DNA of 63,134 bases, filler included, from Craspedostauros australis (GCA_030167865.1; 16 parts of 16 records of this genome joined end to end with filler, not necessarily neighbours in it); one strand, 5' to 3'; positions 7,171-40,981 are shown, numbered from the whole stretch's first letter. Translations and numbers: made by a program. The notes: generated by a model from the sequence alone, not told the origin.

Positions 7171-7271
7171 GNNNNNNNNNNNNNNNNNNNNNNNNNNNNN
7201 NNNNNNNNNNNNNNNTTAATTAATTAANNNNNNNNNNNNNNNNNNNNNNNNNNNNNNNNNNNNNNNNNNNN

Positions 7272-10212: not shown

Positions 10213-11022
10213 ATGATGAAAGTCAGCTTGTTCCAAGGTCCCAAAAACAACAGCAACCGCAACCGCAGCAACCGCAACCGCAACGACAGCAACAACAATA
10301 GCCAACACCACGTCGAAACCTGCAGAAACTGTGCTCCCAACAACAGCACAGATCCCTACATCCTCAACAGCCTGCTGCCGAACGTCATCATCTGGAAGTT
10401 GCCCTTCTCCACAAATGGTGAATCAGATGCATCCACGGTCCAAAACGCAACAACGCTCTCCACATACGAATCAAGGAGTCTCACATCCTTTTCGCGCAGC
10501 TACTACACGGATGCCTCGTCGTCACACTTTGATGATGAGTCGGATCACAACAACAGTCGCACGCAGCTACTGCAAATGGTATACGAAACAGGCGACGAAC
10601 AATCTGAGCTCGTCATTCAAGAAGTCCAACGGAATCTCAAGCGCAACCCTGAGTCAAATGAGCCCGATGATGAGTGGTCCTTTCTGTCATCACCACTGGA
10701 GGGACCAGCCAGACAGCAGCCTCAACCACGCGCCCCGCCGATCCAGTCTCATGGGCGGGTCAAAAAGCTCTGCAGACTGAAGCAGGCCTACCTGCGATCC
10801 AAGAACCGCTGTGAGATTGTCATCGTCGATGGTGTTGCAGGCGTCGGCAAGACTGCCATCTGTCAACATTTCTTCGACAATGTGCACGACGCCACGCTGA
10901 TCTTGGGATATGCCAAGTTTGAATCGCCGATCGGGATGTCACCCGACATCCATCCATACGGACCCATCTGGACTGCCTTCGCCTCCCTCCTGCATCAGGC
11001 CACGCAACGGAACCCATCCTAG
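10213..11022 (+). pseudogene. Truncated STAND/AAA_16-type P-loop NTPase
   Basis: HGRVKKLCRLKQAY...VIVDGVAGVGKT (Walker A)...GYAKFE...PYGPIWTAF; stops before Walker B. Confidence 0.6.
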
Positions 11023-11530
11023 ATCCAACAGTATGTGCCGAAGGCTGCTGAGGCTCTTTGCGTCAGCCTTGCACAAACGCGCCACTTCATCTTCGTGGAC
11101 ACAATAACATAGAAATAGTGGTAGAACAGTTGTAGAACATACTAAAGGAAGAAGTCAATGTCATTCAATCATTGCGCTATGTTACTCTGTACTATCGTTT
11201 TTCTGTTGGCCTCAGGGCTTTGTTGTTTGTGTCCTGATCTGCACTAGTTGGAGGGGGCGGCTGCTGCTTGTGGGCCAGCAGCAGTTGCCGCTGTCGTCGT
11301 TGCGGTCAGCGTTGTCATTGTTTGCGCTGCTGCCGTTGTTTGCGTTGCTTCCTAATCTGCACTAGGCGGCGGAGCGGCGACGGCTGTTGCTTCTGGGCCA
11401 GCAGCACTTGCCGCTGTCGTGGGCGTCCTTGTCGTGGGCGTCCTTGTTGTCGGCGTGCATGGCTTAGCCATCTTCATGGCTGCCGCACGCGGAATCAATG
11501 AAGGGGTCCCGGAGGCAAAGAAGTCTTCTA

Positions 11531-11888
11531 TGTTAAAATAGCGCGCTGCGGAATCGAACCACGGAGCCAGTCCACGCCCTGCATGAACACAAGAAATTAA
11601 CGCTTATAACCCATGTCGCGACACCCTCCCTAATTCTTGGATTCATGCCCTTGAGCCCCCCTATCATGAGGACCCCCCACACTCTATCTTTATACTGCCG
11701 CTGTAGGCAGTCGGCAAGTTTCGGGTGTTTCTGTGTGTTTGTTGTAGCAGGGGTGGGTACCAGCCGACGGAATCGAACCTTAGGCCACGCTACCATGTTA
11801 AAATAGCGCGCTGCGGAATCGAACCACGGAGCCAGTCCACGCCCTGCATGAACACAAGAAATTAACGCTTATAACCCATGTCGCGACA
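11531..11888 (-). mobile_element. TRIM (terminal-repeat retrotransposon in miniature), 358 bp
   Basis: Identical 93-bp TG...CA LTRs at 11531-11623 and 11796-11888; TSD CTTCTA at 11525-11530 and 11889-11894; on the minus strand, PBS TGGTAGCGTGG right after the 5' LTR and PPT AGGGAGGG right before the 3' LTR. Confidence 0.92.
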
Positions 11889-11982
11889 CTTCTACACGTT
11901 CCTCGATTCGGTCGGCGGTACGTCGAAGAACATTTCTCGTCCCATTCCAAATCTGTTCGAACCAAGTGGGCCCATTCGAAGG

Positions 11983-12420
11983 CTACAAGCTCACTTCAGA
12001 GCGCTCCACTTCACCCTGCTCCTTACCCTGGCGTTCCTGTACATTGTTGAGGCCACTGCCGACTTGACGAAGCACCTGCTGTTGATCTTGAGAAGGGGCG
12101 TTGCGCAGGGCGTTGCGCAAGGCGCGGAAGGGATTGTTGTGATGTTTGACCAACATCACGAGCCCAGAAAAGTCTCGTCGAACGATGATGACCTCTCTTC
12201 CCCAGTTGCGTGGGTTCCTCTTGACCTTCTTTGCTGACTTCTTGAAACATGTCAACAATCTCTTCTTCTCCTCTTGCGTGAAGAGTGTTTCAAGGTTTTG
12301 GATTACCTGGGCAAGGAAGTCCTTCAGTAGGTCAAGGCTCCACCCAACTGCCTCGCAGCTTACAGCGAGATCCCAAAGTGCCTGAATGCGTCTTTTTTCT
12401 TCGTCTGTGAAAGTCACCAT
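11983..12420 (-). CDS. Hypothetical protein, possibly the 5' part of a gene interrupted by a stop and the TRIM
   Basis: 145-aa ATG-initiated ORF after an ACAAC-rich leader. The same frame stays open past the TAG and across the reconstructed empty TRIM site to about 11352. Confidence 0.4.
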   Translation of the reverse strand: MVTFTDEEKRRIQALWDLAVSCEAVGWSLDLLKDFLAQVIQNLETLFTQEEKKRLLTCFKKSAKKVKRNPRNWGREVIIVRRDFSGLVMLVKHHNNPFRALRNALRNAPSQDQQQVLRQVGSGLNNVQERQGKEQGEVERSEVSL

Positions 12421-13689
12421 GGTTGACGTTGTTGTTCAGGTGTGTGCGTGTGCTGATGGGGAGTGCTCCTTCAGATCAATCGTCGGTTGATGTGGAAGGT
12501 GTGTGTTGAAGATTTGTTGCGAAGTTGCTCCATTTATGAAGTGGCAAATGGAGGACGAGGAGAACAAGGAAAGAACTTGCACTTGCCGCGTTGTACCGCG
12601 TTGTCTTTGGCGCAAAGTCGGAGAGGAGCTCGATGTGAGTGTGCATGTTGTGCACTCCGTGCTTTGACGCCGCAGTTCCAATGCTCCTTCTAACGGTATT
12701 CCTCACATCCAAAGCTATGGCAGTTGACTTTGAGCAAGATGCGCACGAACTTGCGACGTGCAGAAAGCGTGGATGCACGATCGCAGTCGGCCGTTTGTGG
12801 TCCAGGTTTGTCTTTTTGAAATCATTGGCCTGTTGTTCATGGGCATGTTGACCACCGTGTTGGTGGCTTGTTCTGGCCTCTCCGTGTTGGGCGGAGATGT
12901 GGACAACAAGGAAGATACCAACGCCAACAGTGAGGGATGCGGATCCAATGTGCGTGACCGTTTCGATGGTTTGGACTTTTAGTCCATTGAATCAATCGCC
13001 GTGTCTCTCTCTCTGATGGATCCGTTGATTGATTGTTCGGTGGCATCAAGATACCAAAGCACACCATGTCCCCGCGCGTATTGTGCCACTCCGATTGGCA
13101 AAGTTCCAGGCTTCAAGCACACATCACACCACTCGAAGCGCCGAAGAACTGTATCGATCGGAGTGGTATCGTGGTCGACTCCCCCAAGACCATCACAGAG
13201 GGATGTGCCTACTCAGATAACACGGTCTATGGTATCACATGAAGAGGCACAACTGCACAGCGTGGACAAGTTGGGCACGATCGAAAGTCGTATCGTGCGA
13301 GCGAGCGAGCCAGCCAGCCTCGGATCATAATGTGGCTGTCCACGGTCGTATCACACCACACCATACCATACCACGCCATACCATACACAGTGGTGGAACT
13401 GCGCAAGTCCATGAAGGTGTGTTGACTGACGACACGTTGCTTCGTGATCCATGCACAAGATCATGGAATGGAGGACAGCAATCTTGAGCAAATGAGCTCA
13501 TAATTGCCATCCAAGCGCAACTGATTTGGGACCACATACCTACTCTACATACTCTGCCTGCTCTGTCAGCTCTACTCATACGATTGTGCNNNNNNNNNNN
13601 NNNNNNNNNNNNNNNNNNNNNNNNNNNNNNNNNTTAATTAATTAANNNNNNNNNNNNNNNNNNNNNNNNNNNNNNNNNNNNNNNNNNNN

Positions 13690-15633
13690 CCCCTGAGAGC
13701 GGTGCTCCGGAGGATCTGGCATCGCCGTGACTTCGGAGTCATCGGTCTCCTCAGAGATGTTACCCGTGGATGCTTCGCCGTCATCATCGGAGATGACGCC
13801 GTGTGCATTATGTTCCGGCATGTCGCCGTCGTTGGGAATTATGTTTGGTTGACCGAACCATCGGTCAGCCGTGCCTGCTGGNNNNNNNNNNNCGGATACG
13901 CCCCTGACCTCCTGCGTCTCCGGCTCCGGTGGACCCGCCGCCGCCCCTGACTGCACAGCAATCGCGTCGATGGCCTCGCGGACCTGTCGAGCGAGTTCCG
14001 CCGGCAATGTCTTGGTCCTGGCGCGTTCGCCGGATTCGCCGCGCGTAGTGGTGTGGATGATATCGAGTCGAGCGATGCGGTTGATCTCCGCGTCCGTGAT
14101 GCGTGGAGGAATGGCGTCTTCGACGACACGCGGCTTGACGATGTTGCGCACAAGCGCGGTGCCCTTCGTGATGTCATCGCCTCGTGGCGACCATACGGTG
14201 TAGGTGAATGGGTCGCCGTGGTTCCATGCGATGCCAAGGAAGTACCCTGGCTTGAATGGATGGTGGGGGAATTTGGTCATGGGTTCGAAGAACCATACGG
14301 GCTGGAAGAACGTGAAGCGAAACATCGAGATGTCGGGAGTGTTTCCTCGAAGAATCTCGATTGGAGTGCGCCATTGGAGGCTCGCCTTCGCCGTGTAGTT
14401 CCATGTGTCGATCGCGTGTTGCACAGCATAGCACCAGAATGAGAGTGGCGCCGAGGCGGCCCACAGAAGCTGGTATGCATGCCGCTTGACATCACCGATC
14501 GCTCGTTCTGCGTGATTCTGGTTCTGATTCATTGGCACAGTGAACTGGTGCTTGATCAAATAGCGGGATGTGACCGCTTTCCATGCCTTGCCCGATTGCA
14601 CCTGCGAATTGTCTGATACGAGTAGGTCCGGAGCGCCGATGCGGATGATGAAGTCCGTGAGCGCCCCTGGCGCCATGGCCTCGCGGCCCAATGGCTTCGC
14701 CCAGATGAATTTCGATTGTTGGTGTGAGAATAGCTGGAAGCATTTGTAGTGCCGGATGGACTGGACGGTGGAGAAGAACGTGTCCGTGTCAACTCTGCCG
14801 TCGATCCTGTTGGGCTGCAGCACTCCTGCTCGCTGCGCTCGATACTGCCGCGGGATAAGCCTTGACTCTGCCTCGATCGGAGTATCCGCCAGCTGAGTGG
14901 ATGCCACCATTGTCTTCTCCACCACGTGTGGCGGAAGGTGCCTGAAGATTCGCGTGAAATCGACCCGACCTGCGTTGCGTCGCAGACGCTGATGTCTGTC
15001 GCATATAATGATATGCTGCGCCGTTGCCATCTCGTGGGCTGTCGGCTTTCTGATGGGAATTCTGAGCGTGGTGCCTTCATGGTTCTCCAGCGGTATGCTG
15101 ATTTCGTCCGATGAGACCCGCTGCTGTCCCTGATGTTCGATTAGGCGATCGTAGACGTTCAGTCCGGACGCGCGCATATGATGTGTGTTAAACAGTGATT
15201 CCGTCTGCTGTGGATGCTTGTCGAGAGCCACGTAGTTCGCTTTGATGAGGATCACGCCGCCTGATGGGGGCTCGTATGCTGCCACCGCGTCAACCATCTG
15301 GAATGTCTCGATTGGTGAGCTGATTGTCGCCCCTCGGGCACGAAACTCTTGTTGGTGTGTGTGGGTCACCTCCCAGCCCGACGCATGAACGATGTCTCCG
15401 TCCGCCCCTGAGTCTAGGACGATAAAGCCTTGGCTATTGTTCGTTACTCTTGCCCTTCGGATGCAGTGCTCCACTGTCAGGTGGGTTGTGCACGGACGGG
15501 ACTCTTGTGGTGCCACCGGACGTGCACGTCCGGGCATTCCCGCTGCGGTTGTCACGCTCGCCCCCCTACAGTCGCGGGGTTTGAGGTGGATGACAATCTC
15601 CGACTGACGGCGAGTTGTGCCCGTCTTTGATTG
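13690..15633 (-). CDS. pol: Copia-type Pol (aspartic protease then integrase), 3'-truncated by the contig end
   Basis: IVLDSGAD protease motif; integrase VDTDTFF...LVSDNS...NQNHAERAIG...FWCYA; PR-IN order. Confidence 0.9.
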
Positions 15634-17031
15634 TCAAGAACCGGCGTTCCATGNTCCTTGGGTGCNGGGTCGTCCGGTCTTGTGGTCGCCCGTGCNAGGC
15701 CGCTTGGGNCCTCGCTGGGTCAGTGGCAACTCGAGGTTGCGCGCNTACTCTGTTGGCTTGTTGCGCTTGAGTGTGTCTTCATCGATTGNNTTCCCGGTGG
15801 TNCGGAAGTGACGAGACGCTTCGACGAGGAGCACTTGAGTGCTCGCCGGCATGCNACNGAAGACGGAGTCCGGCAACCGAAATGATGCGGCGCCCTTGCG
15901 ATCCCACTTGGAGGATTCGCGTGGCCTCTTGCGGTCGTCCTTGGTGTCCTTCTGCTGGTAGCAACGGTTGCGCTTGGGAGAGTAGTGCCCTTCCGACTTC
16001 GCGAGGAGCGCATCATGTTGCATGAATGCCTCCCGGATGGCGGAAAAGGACTGTTCCGTGTGACGGAACCTGGACATCTCGCTCGTGAAGCGATCGTCCG
16101 TGATGTTGCGGAAGAACTTTGCGATCTTCTGTTGGTCTGTCATTTGCTTCCCGTTCTGCTCCATGACGCGGATGCATTTGGAGAAAGCGTTGACGAATAC
16201 TGGGAAGGGCTCGGATCCGTCGTAACGGAGCTCGGCGATCTTCTGTTCTTCTTCGACGATGGCTTCAGCTTTGTGTTCGGGCGACTCGTATGTTCGCACG
16301 AGTGCCTGGAACGCATCGTGTCCGTTGGGTTCGTGGGCTTCCACGATGAACGCTGCACATCCATCCGCCGTCTTCGTGTGCAGCACCGTGTACAGCTGCT
16401 GGTCGATCTCGTCCTCGAAGTGTGACGGTTTGTCTGCGCTGAGGTACGCGGCGTATCTGGATGTGACCAGTTGGCGCTTGAATGCGATCTTCCAGTCATA
16501 CCAGTTGCAGTTCATTCCAGTGAACTCGGGTGCTTCCGGCATGCTGACCTTGTCGAACTTCCATCCTGATGGAGTTCGCGGGGTCCGTGGTGATCTTGAT
16601 GTGCGTGTCGCGCGGCTCGGGGAGCTGACGGTGATCTCGCGGCTGGTCGCGACTGTCATCTCCGCTGCTGCGGCTGCCTCTCTGATCGCGATTTCCGATC
16701 GAACTTGAGCGGCTGCGTTTGCGACTGGCGTGCTGACTTCTGGCGGCACGTAGTTGTTCGCGTCGTTGAACAGGTCAATTGCTGCCCAATCCGTGCGCGC
16801 AGTGATCGTGTTGGCTCTTGCGTACACGAAGATGCGGAGGATGTTGGTGATGCTGATTGCCGACAGCGTTGGCGAAAGCGTCAACGCCGCCACGATGGTC
16901 GCGTCCGAGTTGCGGATCGCGCGATCGAGTCTCCCGAGCTTCTCACCGAGGAACTCCATCTCTTCATCATCGAGCTGAACCAGCTCTTGGATGATCTTGT
17001 TGAAGGTGTTGATGTTGGTTGGTCGGTCCAT
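15634..17031 (-). CDS. gag: Gag of a diatom copia-like (CoDi-type) LTR retrotransposon
   Basis: PEFTG...WYDWK, LYTVL...GHDAFQALVRTYE...LRYDG capsid-like motifs; likely start MDRPTN at 17031; in frame with pol. Confidence 0.85.
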   Translation of the reverse strand: MDRPTNINTFNKIIQELVQLDDEEMEFLGEKLGRLDRAIRNSDATIVAALTLSPTLSAISITNILRIFVYARANTITARTDWAAIDLFNDANNYVPPEVSTPVANAAAQVRSEIAIREAAAAAEMTVATSREITVSSPSRATRTSRSPRTPRTPSGWKFDKVSMPEAPEFTGMNCNWYDWKIAFKRQLVTSRYAAYLSADKPSHFEDEIDQQLYTVLHTKTADGCAAFIVEAHEPNGHDAFQALVRTYESPEHKAEAIVEEEQKIAELRYDGSEPFPVFVNAFSKCIRVMEQNGKQMTDQQKIAKFFRNITDDRFTSEMSRFRHTEQSFSAIREAFMQHDALLAKSEGHYSPKRNRCYQQKDTKDDRKRPRESSKWDRKGAASFRLPDSVFXXMPASTQVLLVEASRHFXTTGXXIDEDTLKRNKPTEXARNLELPLTQRXPKRPXTGDHKTGRPXTQGXWNAGS

Positions 17032-17093
17032 GGTGATAGCTCGTAAGACGGTAAAAGGGTGGTGTGGTGTTGGGTGTTGCTCAGTGTTGGTAA

Positions 17094-17108
17094 GCACGAC
17101 TCTTAATC
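17094..17108 (-). promoter_or_regulatory. Primer binding site complementary to the tRNA-Lys(CUU) anticodon arm (half-tRNA type)
   Basis: Plus strand reads GCACGA-CTCTTAA-TC (stem, CUU anticodon loop, positions 39-40), abutting the LTR end. Confidence 0.65.
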
Positions 17109-17278
17109 TGTCAAACAGTGCAAGTAACTACGAAAGACGTATTGGCCCGTTGTTTCGTGCCCTGGTCGGAGCTCTTGNTGTTTATTTGTGAGTGCTGTCC
17201 GAAGACAGCCCCCGACCAGTATTTGACTAATAGGATTAGTAAAGAAGTAAGAAGTAAGGAATTCTGTGAGAATTGTCA
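17109..17278 (-). mobile_element. Putative 5' LTR (about 170 bp) of the copia-like element
   Basis: TG...CA bounded (minus strand TGACAATT...TTTGACA) and followed by PBS and gag. The outer boundary is tentative because the second LTR is not in the contig. Confidence 0.55.
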
Positions 17279-17473
17279 ACGACCACAAGGATGCATGCTT
17301 CCGCGCCTCACAAAATGCTGTCTGCACACAATCGACATCGGCATCACATACTCTCCTGCAGTGATCAGCACAAAGGAATCGATAGCAGCATCTGGGCAGC
17401 AGCAGACAACAATCCTCTGAAGTATTTTACCTGTTGGCATCTTGGATCTACGCGAGAAACGACAACAACAAGC

Positions 17474-18939
17474 ATGACGAACGAAGGAGACGCCTCTGCG
17501 TGGAAAAAGTCCATCAAGTCAATACTGAAGGCATCGAGCGGGAGCATGCAGATCAAGGAGCTTCGGAAGCAGGTGCTGCTGTCGTTACAGATGAGCGACA
17601 AGGACAAGGCGTCCAAGAAGCAATTCAAGGCCGTTATGAAGACGTTCGAGCAAAACGAGTTGGTCAAGATCGGCGGCGATGGGAAGGTGGAGTACGTGAA
17701 GAAACGGAAACGAAAGGTCTCTGCGGATGGTGGTGATGATGATATTGACGTCGAGTCCAACCGGAAGACGTCGAAGACCGAGCGCAGCAAGCCCCAGGTA
17801 CCCACGGAAGATGGGACGGAAGCAGCAGCGGGAGCAGAGACCGTGAAGACGGGAAACCCTGCAGACAAGAAGCCGTGCACCGGAAATCCGCAGGCCGTCA
17901 CTCGTTTGTTCATCGGAAACTTGCCATTTGCCGTTGATGAGAGTTCTCTCGGATCTTTCCTTCCCGGTACAGTCACGCACATCAAGTGGATCACGGACAA
18001 GGAGACAGGAAGATTCTATGGATCTGCTTTCGTCGAGATGGAGACGACTAAGAACGCGGCCGATGCAGTTGCCGCAGCTGGTTCAGAGCTGATGGGCCGT
18101 CCGATCAAAATCAACTTCGCCCCTGCCAGGGAGGGCGATGCATGGCCGCCTCCGAAGGCAGTCGTCTCGGGCAACAGCGCAACGACGAGGCAAGCAGGCG
18201 GGAGCGGCAAAAGTGCCATGAGCCCAAAGCCCGACGATTGCGTCAAGCTATTCGTTGGGAACATCTCTTTTGATCTTGACGATGAGCAACTTCGGAACTT
18301 CTTTCAGGCTGTGGATGCTGAACCCAAGGCTATCCGATGGCTGCATCACAAGGACACCGGGGACTTCAAGGGATGGTGAGTACCGGACTCATCACGACGT
18401 GTTTGATTTTCGATGATCTGAATGCACATGAAGTAGCTCTCTGCTTGTGCATTCCACCCAAGGTCACACATCCATTGCCTTCTTACCGCGTGGCCACGAC
18501 CAGCAGGGAGGGACACTGACGGAGGCGTTACATTGTGTGTTTGCGAATGGTATTCAGACGTGGTCGTCCAGAATCACAAGATGCAACTACTCTTGGCTCA
18601 TTCATGTACGCTCGTGGTGCTGCAACGACAGCAGCAGCTGGTTTGCGCGAGGACGCTTCACGTGTGCCTGTTGCATTGACGGTATTGCGACTGCATGGCC
18701 CAATCCACCGCCAACCTTCGTCCACATCATATACACTCCTTCTCATGCGCCTTGCTTTCATTTTCCGTTGTCGCCCCTCCGCTGTGCCTATTCTTGTTGC
18801 GCACGATCACACGTTTATCGCACATCCGCATGACAGCGGGTATGTCGAGTTTTGGGACACACAATCCTGCGATAAGGCAGCAGCGCTCAATGGCAAACAC
18901 TTATTGGGAAGGCCAATTCGAATTGACTGGTCTGACTGA
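17474..18939 (+). CDS. Nucleolin/NSR1-like two-RRM RNA-binding protein; exons 17474-18375 and 18837-18939
   Basis: Lys-rich N-terminus; RLFIGNLPF and YGSAFVEM (RRM1); KLFVGNISF (RRM2). Removing the GT-AG intron 18376-18836 restores RNP1 KGCGYVEF. Confidence 0.9.
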
Positions 18940-19783
18940 GAACATCGTTGGAAGATTCTGATCAAAGTTGGGAGGAATTGCGGGTGTGGCATCCAGAAAT
19001 GCAGAATATTATTACCATACATGGCACGTCACATCGAAATTGCACAGAAATACAAACACAATCACAGGCAGGCGAGAAGGACGCTCAGCTGAATGAATCA
19101 GAGCTTTCGGGGACCCATCGAATTCATCAAACTTTCTACTTGGACATGCGTTGCCAAAGAGTACGTAAATGAAGTTCGTAACGCTATCTTGCGATGATGT
19201 GACATGAAATCATGACGTTCAAGTTTGGGCCATCATCCTTGCTCTCCGAAACGGCGCAGCGAAACTACGTACATACACACACGACAAAGACTATCTTGAA
19301 ACTTTTCGACTCCACCATTTCCAAATCGCAGCGCAATGGTTCTCTTCAGGGTTTAACATGGGCGAAAAATCTGAGGCCGCAAAGCGGCATTTGTTTGATT
19401 GTCCCAGGTCAGGATGATGGTTGCTGTGCCCTTGTTTCTTCTTTCTCTGTGTTGTGTGGGCTGTGGTCTGCACCATCAGCCTCAAGAGTTTCTGTTCATA
19501 TCATTTCACATGCAGACCTGATTTGGCCTGTCCACCCAACGAGGAGAGATACTTGTTGTAAGTACTATTGGTTAGGTAAATCGCGAAAGTGGTGCAAGTG
19601 TGGCGTAGGAGTATGGTACAGCGATACAGTAGGAGTGTAGTAGGAGTGTGCATGTTGTGTTGTTTGAATTTGATACGCTTACTGTGTTGGTATTGGTATC
19701 GGTATTGTGTATTGTAGTGTGTATTGTTTTGTCCTGCATTGTATTTGTTTGTGTATGTAATGGAGGATCAGTTTGTGTGTACC

Positions 19784-21537
19784 TTAAGATTGAGGGCCTT
19801 GTTCGTATCCATCATCTCCTTCGCAGGGACCACAAGTGCTCCTTGGGAAGTATCCGACAATGTCGGAGTCACTTTCGGGAACGCAGAAGGTTTCGTATCC
19901 ATGCCGGGCAGAGTAATGGCAGATGTACACCATGTCTCCGTTGCATGGGTAGTCCTTGGAGAGACACATATGGTCATCAGCTGAGACGACGACATCGTCT
20001 GAATCTTTTGGTTTGGTCACATTTGAAGCATCGGTGATGGAAGCGAGCCCCTCATCCACAGGTGGAGCAATCTCAGAGAGCATACGCCTGTTGTCTGTGC
20101 CATCTTCTGCTGGGCATCTGCTCTCACAGTAGACCTTGTATGTGTACTGGACTGTTGGTCGTTTCTGCTCACTCGGAGGGTGGCAACATGGTGGAACCAC
20201 AGCGTCCCCTGAAGTCTCACTGACCGCATTTGTGTCTGTGAACCAAAGATCCACAATAGTCAATGGGACGCATTTCATACAGTACGCTGTATACCGCATG
20301 GTTTCATCGAAGACGACGTTGTCTTCTTCGAAACAGTCCGTCTCACCAGTTGCATGTTCGTGGTACTGCGCAAAGATGTTGACCGTGCTGTTGAATACCT
20401 GGCGGACGTTGAATGTGACTTGGTCGCCACCGTACTCGAGCACTTCAATCGCGACGCTCGGTGGCGGTGTGTCACCAACTGTGGCGACCAAAACCACGTC
20501 TTCTGGACAAGAAGCCGTCTCTGGGGTGGGGCTCAGCGTTGGGATCGACGTTGGCTCAATTGTGGCAGATGGCGAGCTGTTGGCTTGCGGAGGAGGGGTG
20601 CTGGGATCTCGGCAAACTCCAATAGAGGCGATCGCTCCACGCCCAGCGAACGTCACGATGACTTCGTGGATCATGGAGATATCAACTTCAACGGATTGAA
20701 GCTCGCCATTCGGATCGGCGGCCACAGTGGTTGTTCGAGGTGAAGCACCCTCCCCAAGTCCTGCTTGTGGTGTCGTGGTAATGGTGACATCCTCGGCGAG
20801 GTCGTAAAACACAAACTCCATCTTCTCCGTTGCTTGTCCGTTCATGGTGAACACGATATCACCACCGCCAGAGCTTGGGATCGCAGTTGCAACATTTCCT
20901 TCCTGAATGATAATGGCTGTGCCGACCTCAGTGCTTTCCGTCATCCAATACCGAGCGTTGTCACCGTTTGGCCCACCGTAGGATGACTCGCTTGCAGTGG
21001 TGTTGACTTTTATCATTTCGATGTCAAACGCGATGTATGCAGTTGAAGGAACGAATCCATCTCCGGTTGGCTGTCCATTGACATCAGTGGCGAAATCTAG
21101 GCGTGTGTAGACACATATGTCCTCGGTTGGTCCGCTGGTCGGCGCCGAAGTTGGGGAAGCCGTTGGCTCGATACACTCGGTGTTGCATGGAACATCGAAG
21201 TAGTACGCAGCAAAGCTGTCTGGATTACCTGAGCCACCCTCGCCGTCATCACTTGGAAGGCTGCATGCCTCACAGTTCTCACTGGCAAAGTCATCACCAG
21301 TGTAGATGTAGATCACCACATTCGTGGACATGTCCACACATTCGGCAGAAAGTGAGATTGGAGTGTTCTCTCCGACATTTGTAAACTCAGCGCATTCCTT
21401 CATACCAGTCTCAGACTTGCGGTACTTGATGAAGACATGCGGGATGACTCCGTTGATGATGTTCTGAACGAAGTCGAACTCAACGAGTGTTGCATCATCG
21501 CTCTCGAATGTGAGGATGATTGGCTTGGGGTCGGCAG
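19784..21537 (-). CDS. Diatom Cys-rich extracellular protein with PTS linkers, 5'-partial
   Basis: Frame is open to the contig end; two related Cys-rich modules (ECVD..YYFDVPC; YCM..VPPCCHP..YKVYC), PTASPTSAPT linkers, an RRML motif and a C-terminal Cys-rich module. Confidence 0.8.
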
Positions 21538-22118
21538 NNNNNNNNNNNNNNNNNNNNNNNNNNNNNNNNNNNNNNNNNNNNTTAATTAATTAANNNNNNN
21601 NNNNNNNNNNNNNNNNNNNNNNNNNNNNNNNNNNNNNTCGGTATTCAAACCAAAAGACGTTAAATGCGTTAAACTACAAATTCAATGGTGGTCCATTGAG
21701 TCCACCCAGATTTCGTTTGGGCCATTTTGGGATTAGTCCATGTGGTCGAACGCAAACGGCATCGAGTTTCAGCGAAATTCCCGTGTCTTGCTGGAGGAAA
21801 TTTGCAAATAACGATTTCTGAGAGAATCAGAAGATCGTCCGTCCATCCATCAATGGTACCAAGAGAATCTCGAGGTACTTCCCAACTAAACCTCAGATGA
21901 CGATATCATCTGACAGACTGCTGCATCACCAATGGAACGTGACATCTGGAGAGCAGAAGGACGCCTACTGACGTCGACAAGATGTCAACATGTCACCACG
22001 TCAACAGCTGTCTCCAAGTCAGAGCAGGAGGCGAAGATGCGATGACCCATGAAGATCAGCATCATGGATACTGAAGGTGAACTTCAAATGGTAAGTACTC
22101 ATGGAGTAGGAGCCAGTA

Positions 22119-35539: not shown

Positions 35540-35639
35540 NNNNNNNNNNNNNNNNNNNNNNNNNNNNNNNNNNNNNNNNNNNNTTAATTAATTAANNNNN
35601 NNNNNNNNNNNNNNNNNNNNNNNNNNNNNNNNNNNNNNN

Positions 35640-38600
35640 GGGTGCACTGGACTCCGTTGGCGCTTGTGATGGCATGTCAGATGGAGCCACAGACTCTGTT
35701 GGTGCCTGGGAAGGCAGATCAGACGGTGCACTGGACTCAGTTGGTGCCTGCGAAGGCATGTCAGATGGCGCCACGGACTCAGTTGGTGCCTGAGAGGGCA
35801 GATCAGAGGGCGCGTTGGAATCAGTCGGTGCCTGGGAGGGCAGATCGGATGGCGCCACGGACTCAGTTGGTGACTGTGACGGCATGTCTGAAGGCGCCAC
35901 TGAATCGGTCGGCGCCTGCGATGGCAGATCGGAAGGCGCACTGGAGTCGCTCGGCGGAGCTGATCCTGTTGGGGTGGACGATGGTGCGCTGGAATCACTC
36001 GGTGCGCTGGACTCTGTCGGTGCCTGAGAGGGCATGTCTGATGGCGCCACGGACTCTGTTGGTGCCTGAGAGGGCAGATCCGATGGCGCACTGGACTCAG
36101 TTGGTGCTTGTGATGGCATGTCCGATGGCGCCACGGACTCTGTTGGTGTCTGTGACGGCAAGTCTGATGGAGCCACAGACTCTGTTGGTGCCTGGGAAGG
36201 CAGATCAGAGGGTGCGCTGGACTCCGTTGGTGCCTGCGATGGCATGTCTGATGGAGCCACAGACTCCGTTGGCGCCTGCGAAGGCAAATCGGACGGCGCC
36301 ACGGAATCCGTCGGAGCCTGGGAGGGCAGATCAGAGGGTGCACTGGATTCAGTTGGTGCCTGTGATGGCAGGTCAGAGGGCGCGCTGGATTCGGTTGGTG
36401 CTTGGGAGGGTAGATCCGATGGCGCAACGGACTCCGTTGGTGCTTGGGAAGGCAGATCCGATGGTGCGCTGGACTCCGTTGGCGCTTGGGATGGTAGGTC
36501 CGATGGCGCCACCGATTCTGTTGGCGATTGAGAGGGCAAGTCTGATGGTGCTACGGACTCCGTTGGTGTTTGGGAGGGAAGATCCGATGGTGCGACGGAA
36601 TCTGTTGGTGCCTGCGATGGTAGATCAGAGGGTGCCACGGACTCGGTTGGTGCTTGGGACGGCAAGTCCGATGGCGCCACTGATTCAGTTGGTGCCTGGG
36701 ACGGTAGATCGGAAGGCGCACTGGACTCTGTCGGGGTCTGTGATGGCAGATCAGAGGGTGCTACGGACTCGGTTGGTGCTTGAGACGGCAAATCCGAAGG
36801 CGCGACAGACTCCGTGGGAGCCTGAGATGGCAAATCTGATGGCGCCACAGACTCTGTGGGGCTCTGTGATGGCAGATCCGAAGGTGCGACGGACTCCGTT
36901 GGTGCTTGCGACGGCATGTCGGAAGGTGCGACGGACTCGGTGGGAGTCTGCGAGGGCAGATCAGAAGGCATGATGGATTCCGTTGGTGTTTGGGACGGCA
37001 TATCAGACGGCGCCACAGACTCGGTGGGAGTCTGCGATGGCATGTCTGAGGGAGCCACAGACTCGGTTGGTGCTTGAGACGGCAAATCCGAAGGTGCGAC
37101 AGACTCCGTCGGAGCCTGAGATGGCAAGTCTGATGGCGCCACAGACTCTGTCGGTGCCTGTGAGGGCAGATCCGAAGGTGCGACAGACTCCGTCGGAACC
37201 TGAGATGGCAAGTCTGATGGTGCCACAGACTCTGTCGGTGCCTGTGAGGGTAGATCCGAAGGTGCGACAGACTCCGTTGGTGCTTGCGATGGTAGATCCG
37301 AAGGCGCGACAGACTCCGTCGGAGCCTGAGATGGCAAATCTGATGGCGCCACAGACTCTGTCGGTGCCTGTGAGGGCAGATCAGAGGGCGCAATGGACTC
37401 AGTCGGAGTCTGGGACGGCATGTCGGACGGCGCCACGGACTCGGTGGGAGTCTGCGAGGGCAGATCAGAAGGCATGATGGATTCCGTTGGTGTTTGGGAC
37501 GGCATATCAGACGGCGCCACAGACTCGGTGGGAGTCTGCGATGGCATGTCTGAGGGAGCCACAGACTCGGTTGGTGCTTGAGACGGCAAATCCGAAGGTG
37601 CGACAGACTCCGTCGGAGCCTGAGATGGCAAGTCTGATGGCGCCACAGACTCTGTCGGTGCCTGTGAGGGCAGATCCGAAGGTGCGACAGACTCCGTTGG
37701 TGCTTGCGATGGTAGATCCGAAGGCGCGACAGACTCCGTCGGAGCCTGAGATGGCAAATCTGATGGCGCCACAGACTCTGTCGGTGCCTGTGAGGGCAGA
37801 TCAGAGGGCGCAATGGACTCAGTCGGAGTCTGGGACGGCATGTCGGACGGCGCCACGGACTCGGTGGGAGTCTGCGAGGGCAGGTCCGAGGGCGCGACAG
37901 ACTCCGTTGGTGCTTGGGACGGCAGGTCCGAAGGCGCCACGGACTCCGTCGGAGTCTGCGATGGCATGTCGGACGGCGCCACTGATTCGGTCGGGCTCTG
38001 TGATGGCAGATCAGAGGGTGCGACAGACTCCGTCGGAGCCTGAGATGGCAAATCTGATGGCGCCACAGACTCTGTCGGTGCCTGTGAGGGCAGATCAGAA
38101 GGTGCCACGGACTCCGTCGGTGCCTGCGACGGCATGTCGGAAGGTGCCACGGACTCAGTGGGAGTCTGCGAGGGCAAGTCTGATGGTGCGCTGGATTCCG
38201 TTGGTGCTTGAGATGGCAGATCAGAGGGAGCCATGGACTCTGTCGGAGTCTGGGACGGCATATCGGAAGGCGCAATGGACTCTGTCGGTGCTTGGGATGG
38301 CAGATCAGACGGCGCAATGGACTCAGTCGGAGTCTGCGACGGCATGTCTGATGGCGCCACAGACTCCGTCGGGGTCTGGGATGGCAAATCCGAAGGTGCC
38401 ACGGACTCGGTTGGTGCCTGGGACGGCATATCAGACGGTGCTACAGACTCAGTGGGAGTCTGCGAGGGCAAGTCTGATGGTGCGCTGGACTCCGTTGGTG
38501 CTTGAGATGGCACATCAGAGGGAGCCATGGACTCAGTTGGAGTCTGGGACGGCATATCGGACGGTGCCACTGACTCTGTCGGTGCTTGGGATGGCAGATC

Positions 38601-40634
38601 AGACGGCGCAATGGACTCAGTCGGAGTCTGCGACGGCATGTCTGATGGCGCCACAGACTCCGTCGGGGTCTGGGATGGCAAATCCGAAGGTGCCACGGAC
38701 TCGGTTGGTGCCTGGGACGGCATATCAGACGGTGCTACAGACTCAGTGGGAGTCTGCGAGGGCAAGTCTGATGGTGCGCTGGACTCCGTTGGTGCTTGAG
38801 ATGGCACATCAGAGGGAGCCATGGACTCTGTCGGAGTCTGGGACGGCATGTCGGACGGCGCCACTGATTCGGTCGGGCTCTGTGATGGCAGATCAGACGG
38901 CGCAATGGACTCAGTCGGAGTCTGAGATGGCATGTCTGAGGGAGCCACGGACTCAGTGGGGGTCTGCGAGGGTAGATCCGACGGTGCAACGGACTCGGTT
39001 GGTGCCTGGGACGGCATATCCGAGGGAGCCACGGACTCAGTGGGGGTCTGAGAGGGCAAATCCGAAGGTGCCACGGACTCGGTTGGTGCCTGGGACGGCA
39101 TATCAGAGGGAGCCACGGACTCAGTGGGGGTCTGAGAGGGCAGATCTGATGGTGCGCTGGAATCCGTTGGAGCTTGAGATGGCAGATCGGAGGGTGCACT
39201 GGAGTTGGTCGGGGTTTGAGATGGAGTGGTAGAGGGCGCGCTGGAGTCAGTTGGAGTCTGGGACGGAGTGGTAGACGGCGCAGCGGACTTCGATGGAGAC
39301 TGAGAAGGCGTGGTGGACGGCGCAGCGGACTTCGTTGGAGACTGGGACGGGGTGGCGGATGGTGCGGCGGACTTCGTTGGAGACTGAGATGGAGTGGTGG
39401 ACGGTGCAGCGGACTTTGTTGGGGTCTGGGACGGAGTGGCGGATGGCGCAGCGGACTTCGTTGGAGTCTGAGATGGAGTGGTGGAGGGCGCAGCGGACTT
39501 TGTTGGAGTCTGAGACGGAGTGGTAGAGGGTGCGGCGGACTTCGTTGGAGACTGGGACGGGGTGGTGGAGGGCGCAGCGGACTTCGTTGGGGCCTGAGAC
39601 GGGGCACTGGAGGGCGCAGTTGTGCGTGTCGGGACTCCCGATGGTGCCTGGGATGGTTTCGCGGTGTCGGTTGGGACGAACGAAGGCTCCGAGGAGGGAA
39701 AGACCACTGCGCCGGGATCTGCGGTTGGTGTTTCGCTCGGGGCCTCCGAGAACCCACCGCCCTCGCCGTCGGGGGTGCAGATAATTTTGGTGTAAGTCTC
39801 AATAGCGCCTCCCTTGATGGCCTTGCCGCTTGGGGTAAGCTGGAAGCGGGTCCTGACTTCTTCGAAGCAGGTGCCTGGAGGTAGTGTGGTGGGCCCCGTG
39901 CCGGGCGTGGTACCCTTGGGACCCTTGACTGGAAGGAATGTGAGGTTTCCGGTCTTACTTGCCTTTCCTGTCGCGTCGACAGTAGCTCCTGTTGGGGCGC
40001 TGGGGCTGGTGGGTCCTGTTGGCGTGGTCGGACTCGGGGGCAGGTGGATGTTGCGCCTCTGCTGGCGGTGCATCTGGTTGGCCATGGGGATTCCGTCCAC
40101 CTGATGCCCCGAGAACCAGACCTTGCTGTTGAGCATGGGAGCGTGGTCGTGCAGCTGCTTGTCGATGTTGGGGGCATCATCCAAGATGTTGATGCCGCCG
40201 TGACCTCTCAGGTTGCCGACATCGCTGGTTGTGGCGACAGCAGCACCGTGAGAAGCGGACGGAACGGCTCCGAACTGGGTCACCTGGATCCTGCTGGCGA
40301 CGGGGAGTTGGGACGCAGAATCCTTGCTGTCTTGCGCAAAGGCGTCCCACGCCTGCTTGGCTTGGGTGCCGTCGCTTCCGTCGCTCCCGTTGCTCTTGGC
40401 AGCCTCGTCGCGCTTGGAACCCTTCGATGCCGAGCCGTAGCCGAGGCCGCCGAAAACGATGGATTCGGCGAATGCTGCCTCCGTCGCTTCCTCGTTGTCG
40501 TTCTCATCCTTGCGCTTCTGCTGGTGGGCATGGTGTTTGCGCTGCTCCGGCTGGACTTGCTGCGCCTTGGCTGTCGTCAGCACTGAGGCGGCGCCGAGCA
40601 CCGTCGAGATGGCGACCTTGGAGATGATGGGCAT
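35640..40634 (-). CDS. Large secreted mucin-like PTS-rich protein (>1660 aa, 3'-partial) with >90 14-aa repeats
   Basis: Signal peptide MPIISKVAISTVLGAASVLTTAKA; several KxxK motifs; repeats KSAAPSTTPSQ(S/T)PT then ESVAPSD(L/M)PSQ(A/T)PT with third-position variation. Confidence 0.92.
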
Positions 40635-40981
40635 CTTGGTGTTGCGTTTGCGGAGTTCAGATCGGAGAGGAGTGTGCTTGTGTATCGCAGAGTGCGTTTG
40701 TGCTCGCTGTGACAATCGTACTGGTTGCTGCTGGCTGCTGATACTGGTACTGAAAGTGATCGTCGTGGTTTTGTGATCCTTGTTGCGCGTTTGTCCCTTC
40801 TGCCTTTGGCTCTCAGCCTTCACTTACAACTTCACCTGCTTTTTGTTTGCGGTGGCGTGATGCACGCACTTTGTGAGTGGGNNNNNNNNNNNNNNNNNNN
40901 NNNNNNNNNNNNNNNNNNNNNNNNNTTAATTAATTAANNNNNNNNNNNNNNNNNNNNNNNNNNNNNNNNNNNNNNNNNNNN

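Follow-up and report, generated by a model that had tools for sequence, protein, structure and literature searches.

An in-frame UGA followed by a CAR-YYA hexamer at the gag-pol junction of a copia-type retrotransposon fragment: a plausible case of stop codon readthrough in a diatom

The window, by which we mean the entire 63,134-nucleotide (nt) stretch of Craspedostauros australis DNA (GCA_030167865.1) analysed here, is a chain of separate contigs held together by 15 linkers of the form N44-TTAATTAATTAA-N44 (e.g. 13590-13689, 7172-7271 and 21538-21637), which hold stops in all six frames; contigs that adjoin in the window need not adjoin in the genome. The minus strand of contig 13690-21537 carries part of a retrotransposon whose gag and pol share a single reading frame, broken at their junction by one TGA codon (Table 1). 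Translation of 13642-17127 on this strand gives one frame with one stop, upstream of which 497 codons are open (465 from the ATG at 17031) and downstream of which a further 648 are open, up to the contig end at 13690. The codons across the junction read GGT TCT TGA CAA TCA AAG ACG GGC, just as the sequence-only reading from which we started had given them (gag ending at TGA 15636-15634, followed by CAA TCA AAG ACG). Its statement that the frame stays open into protease and integrase was borne out as well: the 648 codons contain a retropepsin-like protease motif, VLDSGADG (DSGAD, 15420-15397), and, behind it, the D,D-35-E triad of an integrase (14796-14500), composed of D748/D750 (14796-14773), D807 (14619-14605) and E842 (14514-14500) with the 35-residue spacing.

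The TGA lies seven codons ahead of a TTRRQ motif in a poorly conserved linker of about 140 codons that connects the gag core to the protease. Recoding sites of retroelements sit in this very linker. Homology to relatives is present on either side of the TGA, and one protein (P0011) spans it in a single tblastn segment; within gag, which has no CCHC knuckle, tblastn homology covers query residues 161-312. The element displays no lesion besides the TGA, being free of any other definite stop and of frameshifts. No reverse transcriptase (RT), RNase H, second long terminal repeat (LTR), solo LTR or other copy of the element was found in the window, and the RT, RNase H and 3′ LTR are missing because the contig ends at 13690. 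The 5′ region of the element recurs nowhere in the window as a direct repeat and the 3′ end is absent; no LTR could be defined.

Table 1 Features of the gag-TGA-pol element and its surroundings (positions in the window; a dot marks features without strand)
Feature	Position	Strand	Basis
gag open reading frame (ORF), 465 codons, ATG at 17031-17029	15637..17031	-	translation; aligns with gag of P0001, P0002, L001 and L002
in-frame TGA, sole stop in 1114 codons	15634..15636	-	sequence read and translation
hexamer CAA TCA, fits CAR-YYA	15628..15633	-	sequence read; motif as defined in passages of PMC3542737
beginning of pol, in frame with gag: linker, protease and integrase, ended by the contig end	13690..15633	-	translation
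first ATG 3′ of the stop, 33 codons downstream and upstream of the protease; possible separate start of pol	15535..15537	-	translation
ten ambiguous bases clustered in gag shortly upstream of the stop (low-quality consensus)	15654..15858	.	N positions
codon TAN, gag codon 429: Tyr or second stop	15745..15747	-	ambiguous codon check
linker N44-TTAATTAATTAA-N44; closes the contig and cuts the element	13590..13689	.	sequence read

Pfam searches with the gag and pol parts returned no family even at E = 10, bar a chance-level match to Muc_B2, which marks both halves of the element as divergent. A word-indexed protein search with pol retrieved six proteins, of which P0001 and P0002 are 38% identical to the query and P0005 and P0006 carry a copia-type RT domain (RVT_2) behind the integrase. 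A HMMER search of 1.84 billion representative proteins gave 2074 matches at E ≤ 0.001, the best of them 33-38% identical overall. Among the relatives collected in this work (proteins are labeled P and metagenomic loci L), Pfam identified RVT_2 in P0009, P0011, L001, L016 and L027, and the order of integrase followed by RVT_2 was found in P0005, P0006, P0009, P0011 and L001. Below threshold, the gag of P0001 matches Retrotran_gag_2 (23.9 bits, cutoff 27) and P0011 matches rve. A profile that included the protease-integrase region of the window element matched retroviral integrase cores in the PDB (human T-lymphotropic virus 2 and mouse mammary tumor virus) with E values from 6e-4 to 5e-3, and a profile search with gag yielded two short, uninformative L002-like gag fragments. 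Among ESM Atlas clusters for which a phylum is recorded, the closest are assigned to Bacillariophyta, the phylum being known for only one to three members per cluster. As the relatives carry RVT_2 after the integrase, the earlier assignment of the element to copia is supported, and we interpret the locus as a Ty1/copia LTR retrotransposon akin to the diatom CoDi elements, of which the 5′ part (gag, protease and integrase) is present. It resembles these in having integrase ahead of RVT_2 in its relatives, a gag without CCHC and Bacillariophyta as Atlas neighbors; we assign it to no named CoDi group. In some CoDi elements gag and pol are separated by a single stop or frameshift, and an ORF1/ORF2 layout is described as well (Maumus et al. 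2009, PMC2806351).

The codons that directly follow the TGA match the signal that defines type I, or tobacco mosaic virus (TMV)-type, stop codon readthrough. According to passages of PMC3542737, UAG-CAR-YYA is the type I signal and the hexamer is active on UGA too. Of the 1112 in-frame codons of the element, 4 are followed by CARYYA, and in the window as a whole its frequency is 0.22-0.24% of positions, so that a match of the hexamer at the stop is unlikely to arise by chance (an event of about 0.2-0.4%). Furthermore, the extension beyond the stop is in frame and homologous to protease and integrase, as in type I cases, where the downstream frame encodes an enzymatic extension. Conservation of the stop and the hexamer among copies or relatives, which would complete the type I picture, was not found. 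We assign a probability of about 0.5 to the TGA being a real, leaky and functional stop at the gag-pol junction. This reading supposes that the bases of the TGA are called correctly, that the active copies of the family have it in common and that ribosomes do read through it. In such a case, translation of gag would terminate at the UGA in most rounds, a near-cognate tRNA would decode the UGA in a small share of ribosomes owing to the CAA UCA context, and the resulting Gag-Pol fusion would be made alongside an excess of Gag.

For the 137 nt that start at the stop, the fold of minimum energy, computed with a method that does not predict pseudoknots, is not significant (z = −0.73, with 44 of 200 shuffled sequences folding as well). 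Type I signals need no RNA structure, and the lack of a significant fold is neutral as far as a type I reading is concerned. On a smaller scale, UGACAAUC, made up of the stop codon and the five bases behind it, can form a perfect duplex with GAUUGUCA, located 30 nt further 3′ (15591-15636, minus strand), in a region whose fold as a whole is no better than those of shuffled sequences.

Sequence collections were also scanned by pattern. The scan of viral contigs gave 32 pattern matches, none of them confirmed, and the scan of genome contigs gave one match of 48 codons, which was of no use; the metagenome scan gave 72 pattern matches, 33 of which were confirmed, in 32 loci. The junction is decayed, or lies next to decay, in five of these loci (L004, L006, L009, L023 and L024), is free of stops in four and contains a TGA in seven, with L020 described separately below; the remaining loci do not reach it. 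Among the proteins, P0009, P0025, P0032, P0036 and P0045 carry no gag part and are uninformative on the junction, as P0025 begins behind the protease motif and the other four 24-45 residues ahead of the protease alignment. In a maximum-likelihood tree computed from the protease-integrase region (35 rows, 339 columns; L029-L032 omitted as too short), the sequences fall into two groups, separated with 98% support in the Shimodaira-Hasegawa-like approximate likelihood ratio test (SH-aLRT). We considered L004 as a supporting relative, since it lies near the window element on the tree and carries TGA-CAA in the linker, but rejected it as decayed: it has three in-frame stops (322-324, 1099-1101 and 1795-1797), two of which are TGA followed by CAA, one of these being the one in the gag-protease linker, and one of its stops falls inside the invariant GNTPDIS.

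The most solid new fact to come out of this comparison is a conserved gag-UGA-pol junction in a related clade of marine metagenomic elements. An in-frame TGA is found at the gag-protease boundary in seven of seven loci (L010:5111, L011:1336, L012:5424, L013:4715, L015:529, L016:2163 and L022:1665, in locus coordinates), whose junctions share 45-82% nucleotide identity; L010 and L011 are 99.7% identical, so the seven loci represent six distinct elements. They form one clade (97% SH-aLRT) in the group apart from that of the window element. Protein conservation extends to both sides of the stop (...INNRRHILTFS..E * ....ITNRRT...), which lies a few codons before an xRR motif (eight before NRRT) and 20-25 codons before the protease. 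No covarying structure was detected 3′ of the TGA in the clade, where five pairs are present, all of them invariant. The pol of L010 ends in TGA at the C-terminus, where those of L012 and L013 end in TAG, and TGA is therefore a genuine terminator in the hosts of these elements. L020 is probably another member of the clade: it carries GAA TGA (200-202) 40 codons before its protease match and 47 before LILDSGGG, and a second TGA inside the integrase. Taken together, the conserved TGA shows that an in-frame UGA is a real strategy in the superfamily, in another context than that of the window element and of separate origin. An in-frame UGA, rare among copia elements, is thus recurrent in this group and open to comparative study. 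The clade and the window element belong to the same superfamily and both have a TGA in the gag-protease linker, in an alignment too loose to call the two positions homologous; they differ in the context of the stop and in the start of gag.

Several other properties of these elements were noted. Their gag begins with MG(S/T/N)xxSS (L013:3644-4714, L016:1125-2162, L022:588-1664 and L011:166-1335), which we take to resemble an N-myristoylation signal. It also contains I-N-N-R-R-like repeats, two before the TGA and one after it, which may be protease cleavage sites. At L010:3362-3941, L012:3657-4317 and L013:2857-3644, the end of pol is followed, about 600-800 bp further on, by the start of gag in another element from this family, an arrangement that suggests tandem elements with one common LTR. 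A purine tract, GGGGAGA, directly follows the pol stop.

The comparison with relatives also yields most of the observations that weigh against programmed readthrough in the window element. First, the window element groups (98% SH-aLRT) with elements in which gag runs uninterrupted into protease, namely L001, L002, L005, P0001 and P0002. L001 and L002, like L027, the fourth metagenomic locus without a stop at this place, are single frames of 1814-1868 codons, and L005 is frameshifted earlier in gag. By inspection, the junctions of five of the ten proteins taken from the HMMER matches (P0007, P0008, P0010, P0011 and P0013) are uninterrupted too, and every relative in the same group with a readable junction lacks the stop. 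Second, the approximately unbiased (AU) test rejects a grouping of the window element with the TGA clade (p = 0.00023; the grouping was named after the tree had been seen), and the TGA of the window element was therefore not inherited from that clade; it either arose independently or is an accident of one copy. The tree does not fix the place of the window element inside its own group, where it sits on a long branch (0.99). Third, the context of the clade TGA, (A/G)A(A/G)-TGA-(A/G)(A/C)(C/T), or AA-TGA-RAY for short, differs from CARYYA. Fourth, the window holds no second copy of the element, and no relative is closer than 33-38% among the 2074 matches. The fold given above, with no significant stability, belongs on this side as well. 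Among relatives at this distance, the alignment that the sequence-only reading had proposed, in search of a conserved stop plus CARYYA, turned out negative: relatives of the same group have no stop, and the TGA clade has another hexamer. Of the broader proposal that programmed readthrough sets the Gag:Pol ratio in this diatom copia lineage, what stands is that the strict CARYYA match is rare and that another clade keeps a gag-TGA-pol junction, while the extension to the lineage is unsupported, the nearest relatives being uninterrupted.

These points favor the main alternative, which we regard as a serious contender of somewhat lower probability, that the stop is not programmed and represents either a private nonsense mutation of one copy or a base miscalled on the border of a low-quality stretch. 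In that event, elements of the family would have one uninterrupted gag-pol frame, like the nearest relatives, and the hexamer would be coincidental. In addition to the uninterrupted relatives, this alternative draws on the quality of the sequence, with ten N located 18-224 nt upstream of the TGA and the TAN codon among the affected ones. For the same reason, the earlier description of the junction as "a single UGA" is not certain: the TGA is the sole definite in-frame stop in 1114 codons, and TAN at codon 429 may be a second one. Furthermore, relatives often have an isolated nonsense codon in an otherwise long frame (L003, L007, L014 and L020), the decayed L004 has its three, one of them a TGA-CAA in the same linker, and a single change separates TGA from several sense codons, among them CGA, present 18 times in the 1114 codons of the element. 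Against an accidental origin stands the coincidence that it demands, since chance would have had to place the stop both in a linker of about 140 codons and before a hexamer that follows 4 of 1112 codons. The frame is moreover kept through the N-rich stretch, which argues that the sequence there is not grossly wrong, and the observed/expected ratio of CpG is 1.18 in the element versus 0.87 in the window, giving no sign of long deamination decay.

An improbable alternative is that the stop is real and kept, and that Pol is made without hexamer-driven readthrough, by reinitiation at the ATG 33 codons downstream, from an internal promoter or by an unknown bypass. The first ATG after the stop does lie upstream of the protease, and precedents for other routes can be found. 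In passages of PMC2194720, the flanks of the UGA of the Candida albicans element Tca2 are reported to have driven no readthrough in yeast, and its junction to have a minor promoter. The TGA clade described above lacks a classic leaky context 3′ of the stop as well as any conserved structure downstream, so its hosts may use another route. However, the stretch between the stop and the ATG of the window element stays in frame, and its residues align to the linker found in relatives (TTRRQSEIVIHLK versus KVRRTKT...IKVSMK), as expected if ribosomes continue across the stop; relatives do not conserve the ATG, and the strict type I hexamer would be left as an unexplained coincidence. Two further candidates were rejected: an intron that excises the stop, as the sole GT...AG seen by inspection across the TGA is 38 nt long, too short and not a multiple of three, and TGA as a sense or selenocysteine codon, as TGA terminates several long frames of the window and the pol of L010 and occurs once per long element frame.

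On balance, readthrough of the window TGA is plausible but unproven. If it does occur, one could go further and propose that in diatom-type copia elements the gag-UGA-pol arrangement evolved at least two times from single-frame ancestors, with CAA-UCA in the lineage of the window element and AA-UGA-RAY, with neither classic leaky context nor conserved structure, in at least six metagenomic elements. We put this forward as a tentative and rather doubtful scenario; if true, the AA-UGA-RAY clade would point to an undescribed stramenopile route of readthrough or bypass. If the stop of the window element is real, a copia-type element would set its Gag:Pol ratio by the six-base leaky-stop signal of plant viruses, and it would offer a compact and portable test case of readthrough in diatoms, where recoding has hardly been studied. 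Should it instead prove to be a private mutation or an error, the locus would be no more than a truncated retrotransposon copy of the ordinary kind.

Natural type I sites are mostly UAG codons of plant RNA viruses. The window element is like them in that CAA UCA directly follows the stop, and unlike typical cases in that the stop is a UGA, located in a diatom-type retrotransposon and known from sequence alone. A non-exhaustive literature search found no CARYYA-type readthrough described in a diatom retrotransposon, and the window case would be a retroelement gag-pol readthrough built on a known hexamer signal. A published parallel is Tca2, a Ty1/copia element whose gag and pol share a frame split by a UGA (as given in passages of PMC2194720). 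The window element shares with it the copia type and the UGA between gag and pol in the same frame. It differs from Tca2, where a purine-rich spacer and putative pseudoknot accompany the flanks that drove no readthrough in yeast, in carrying the type I hexamer and no significant structure, and the two are not close relatives. In murine leukemia virus (MuLV), low-rate readthrough of an in-frame gag-pol stop sets the Gag:Pol ratio, according to the same passages. MuLV represents type III, with UAG, an 8-nt spacer and a pseudoknot, unlike the window element with its UGA and no significant downstream fold.

Upstream of the element, about 440 bp separate the ATG of gag from the ATG of a divergent host-type frame (17474-18379, plus strand), which we read as an RNA-binding protein similar to those with an RNA recognition motif. 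The proximity of this neighboring gene leaves little space for a 5′ LTR.

Elsewhere in the window, two 100-nt direct repeats, 98% identical, are located 265 nt apart (11525-11624 and 11790-11889); ARAGORN found no tRNA at these repeats or anywhere in 11000-18000. A long open frame of 1743 codons on the minus strand (35592-40823), which reaches the end of its contig, encodes a Ser/Thr/Pro-rich, mucin-like protein in which a unit of about 16 residues (APSDLPSQAPTESV...) recurs dozens of times in near-identical form.

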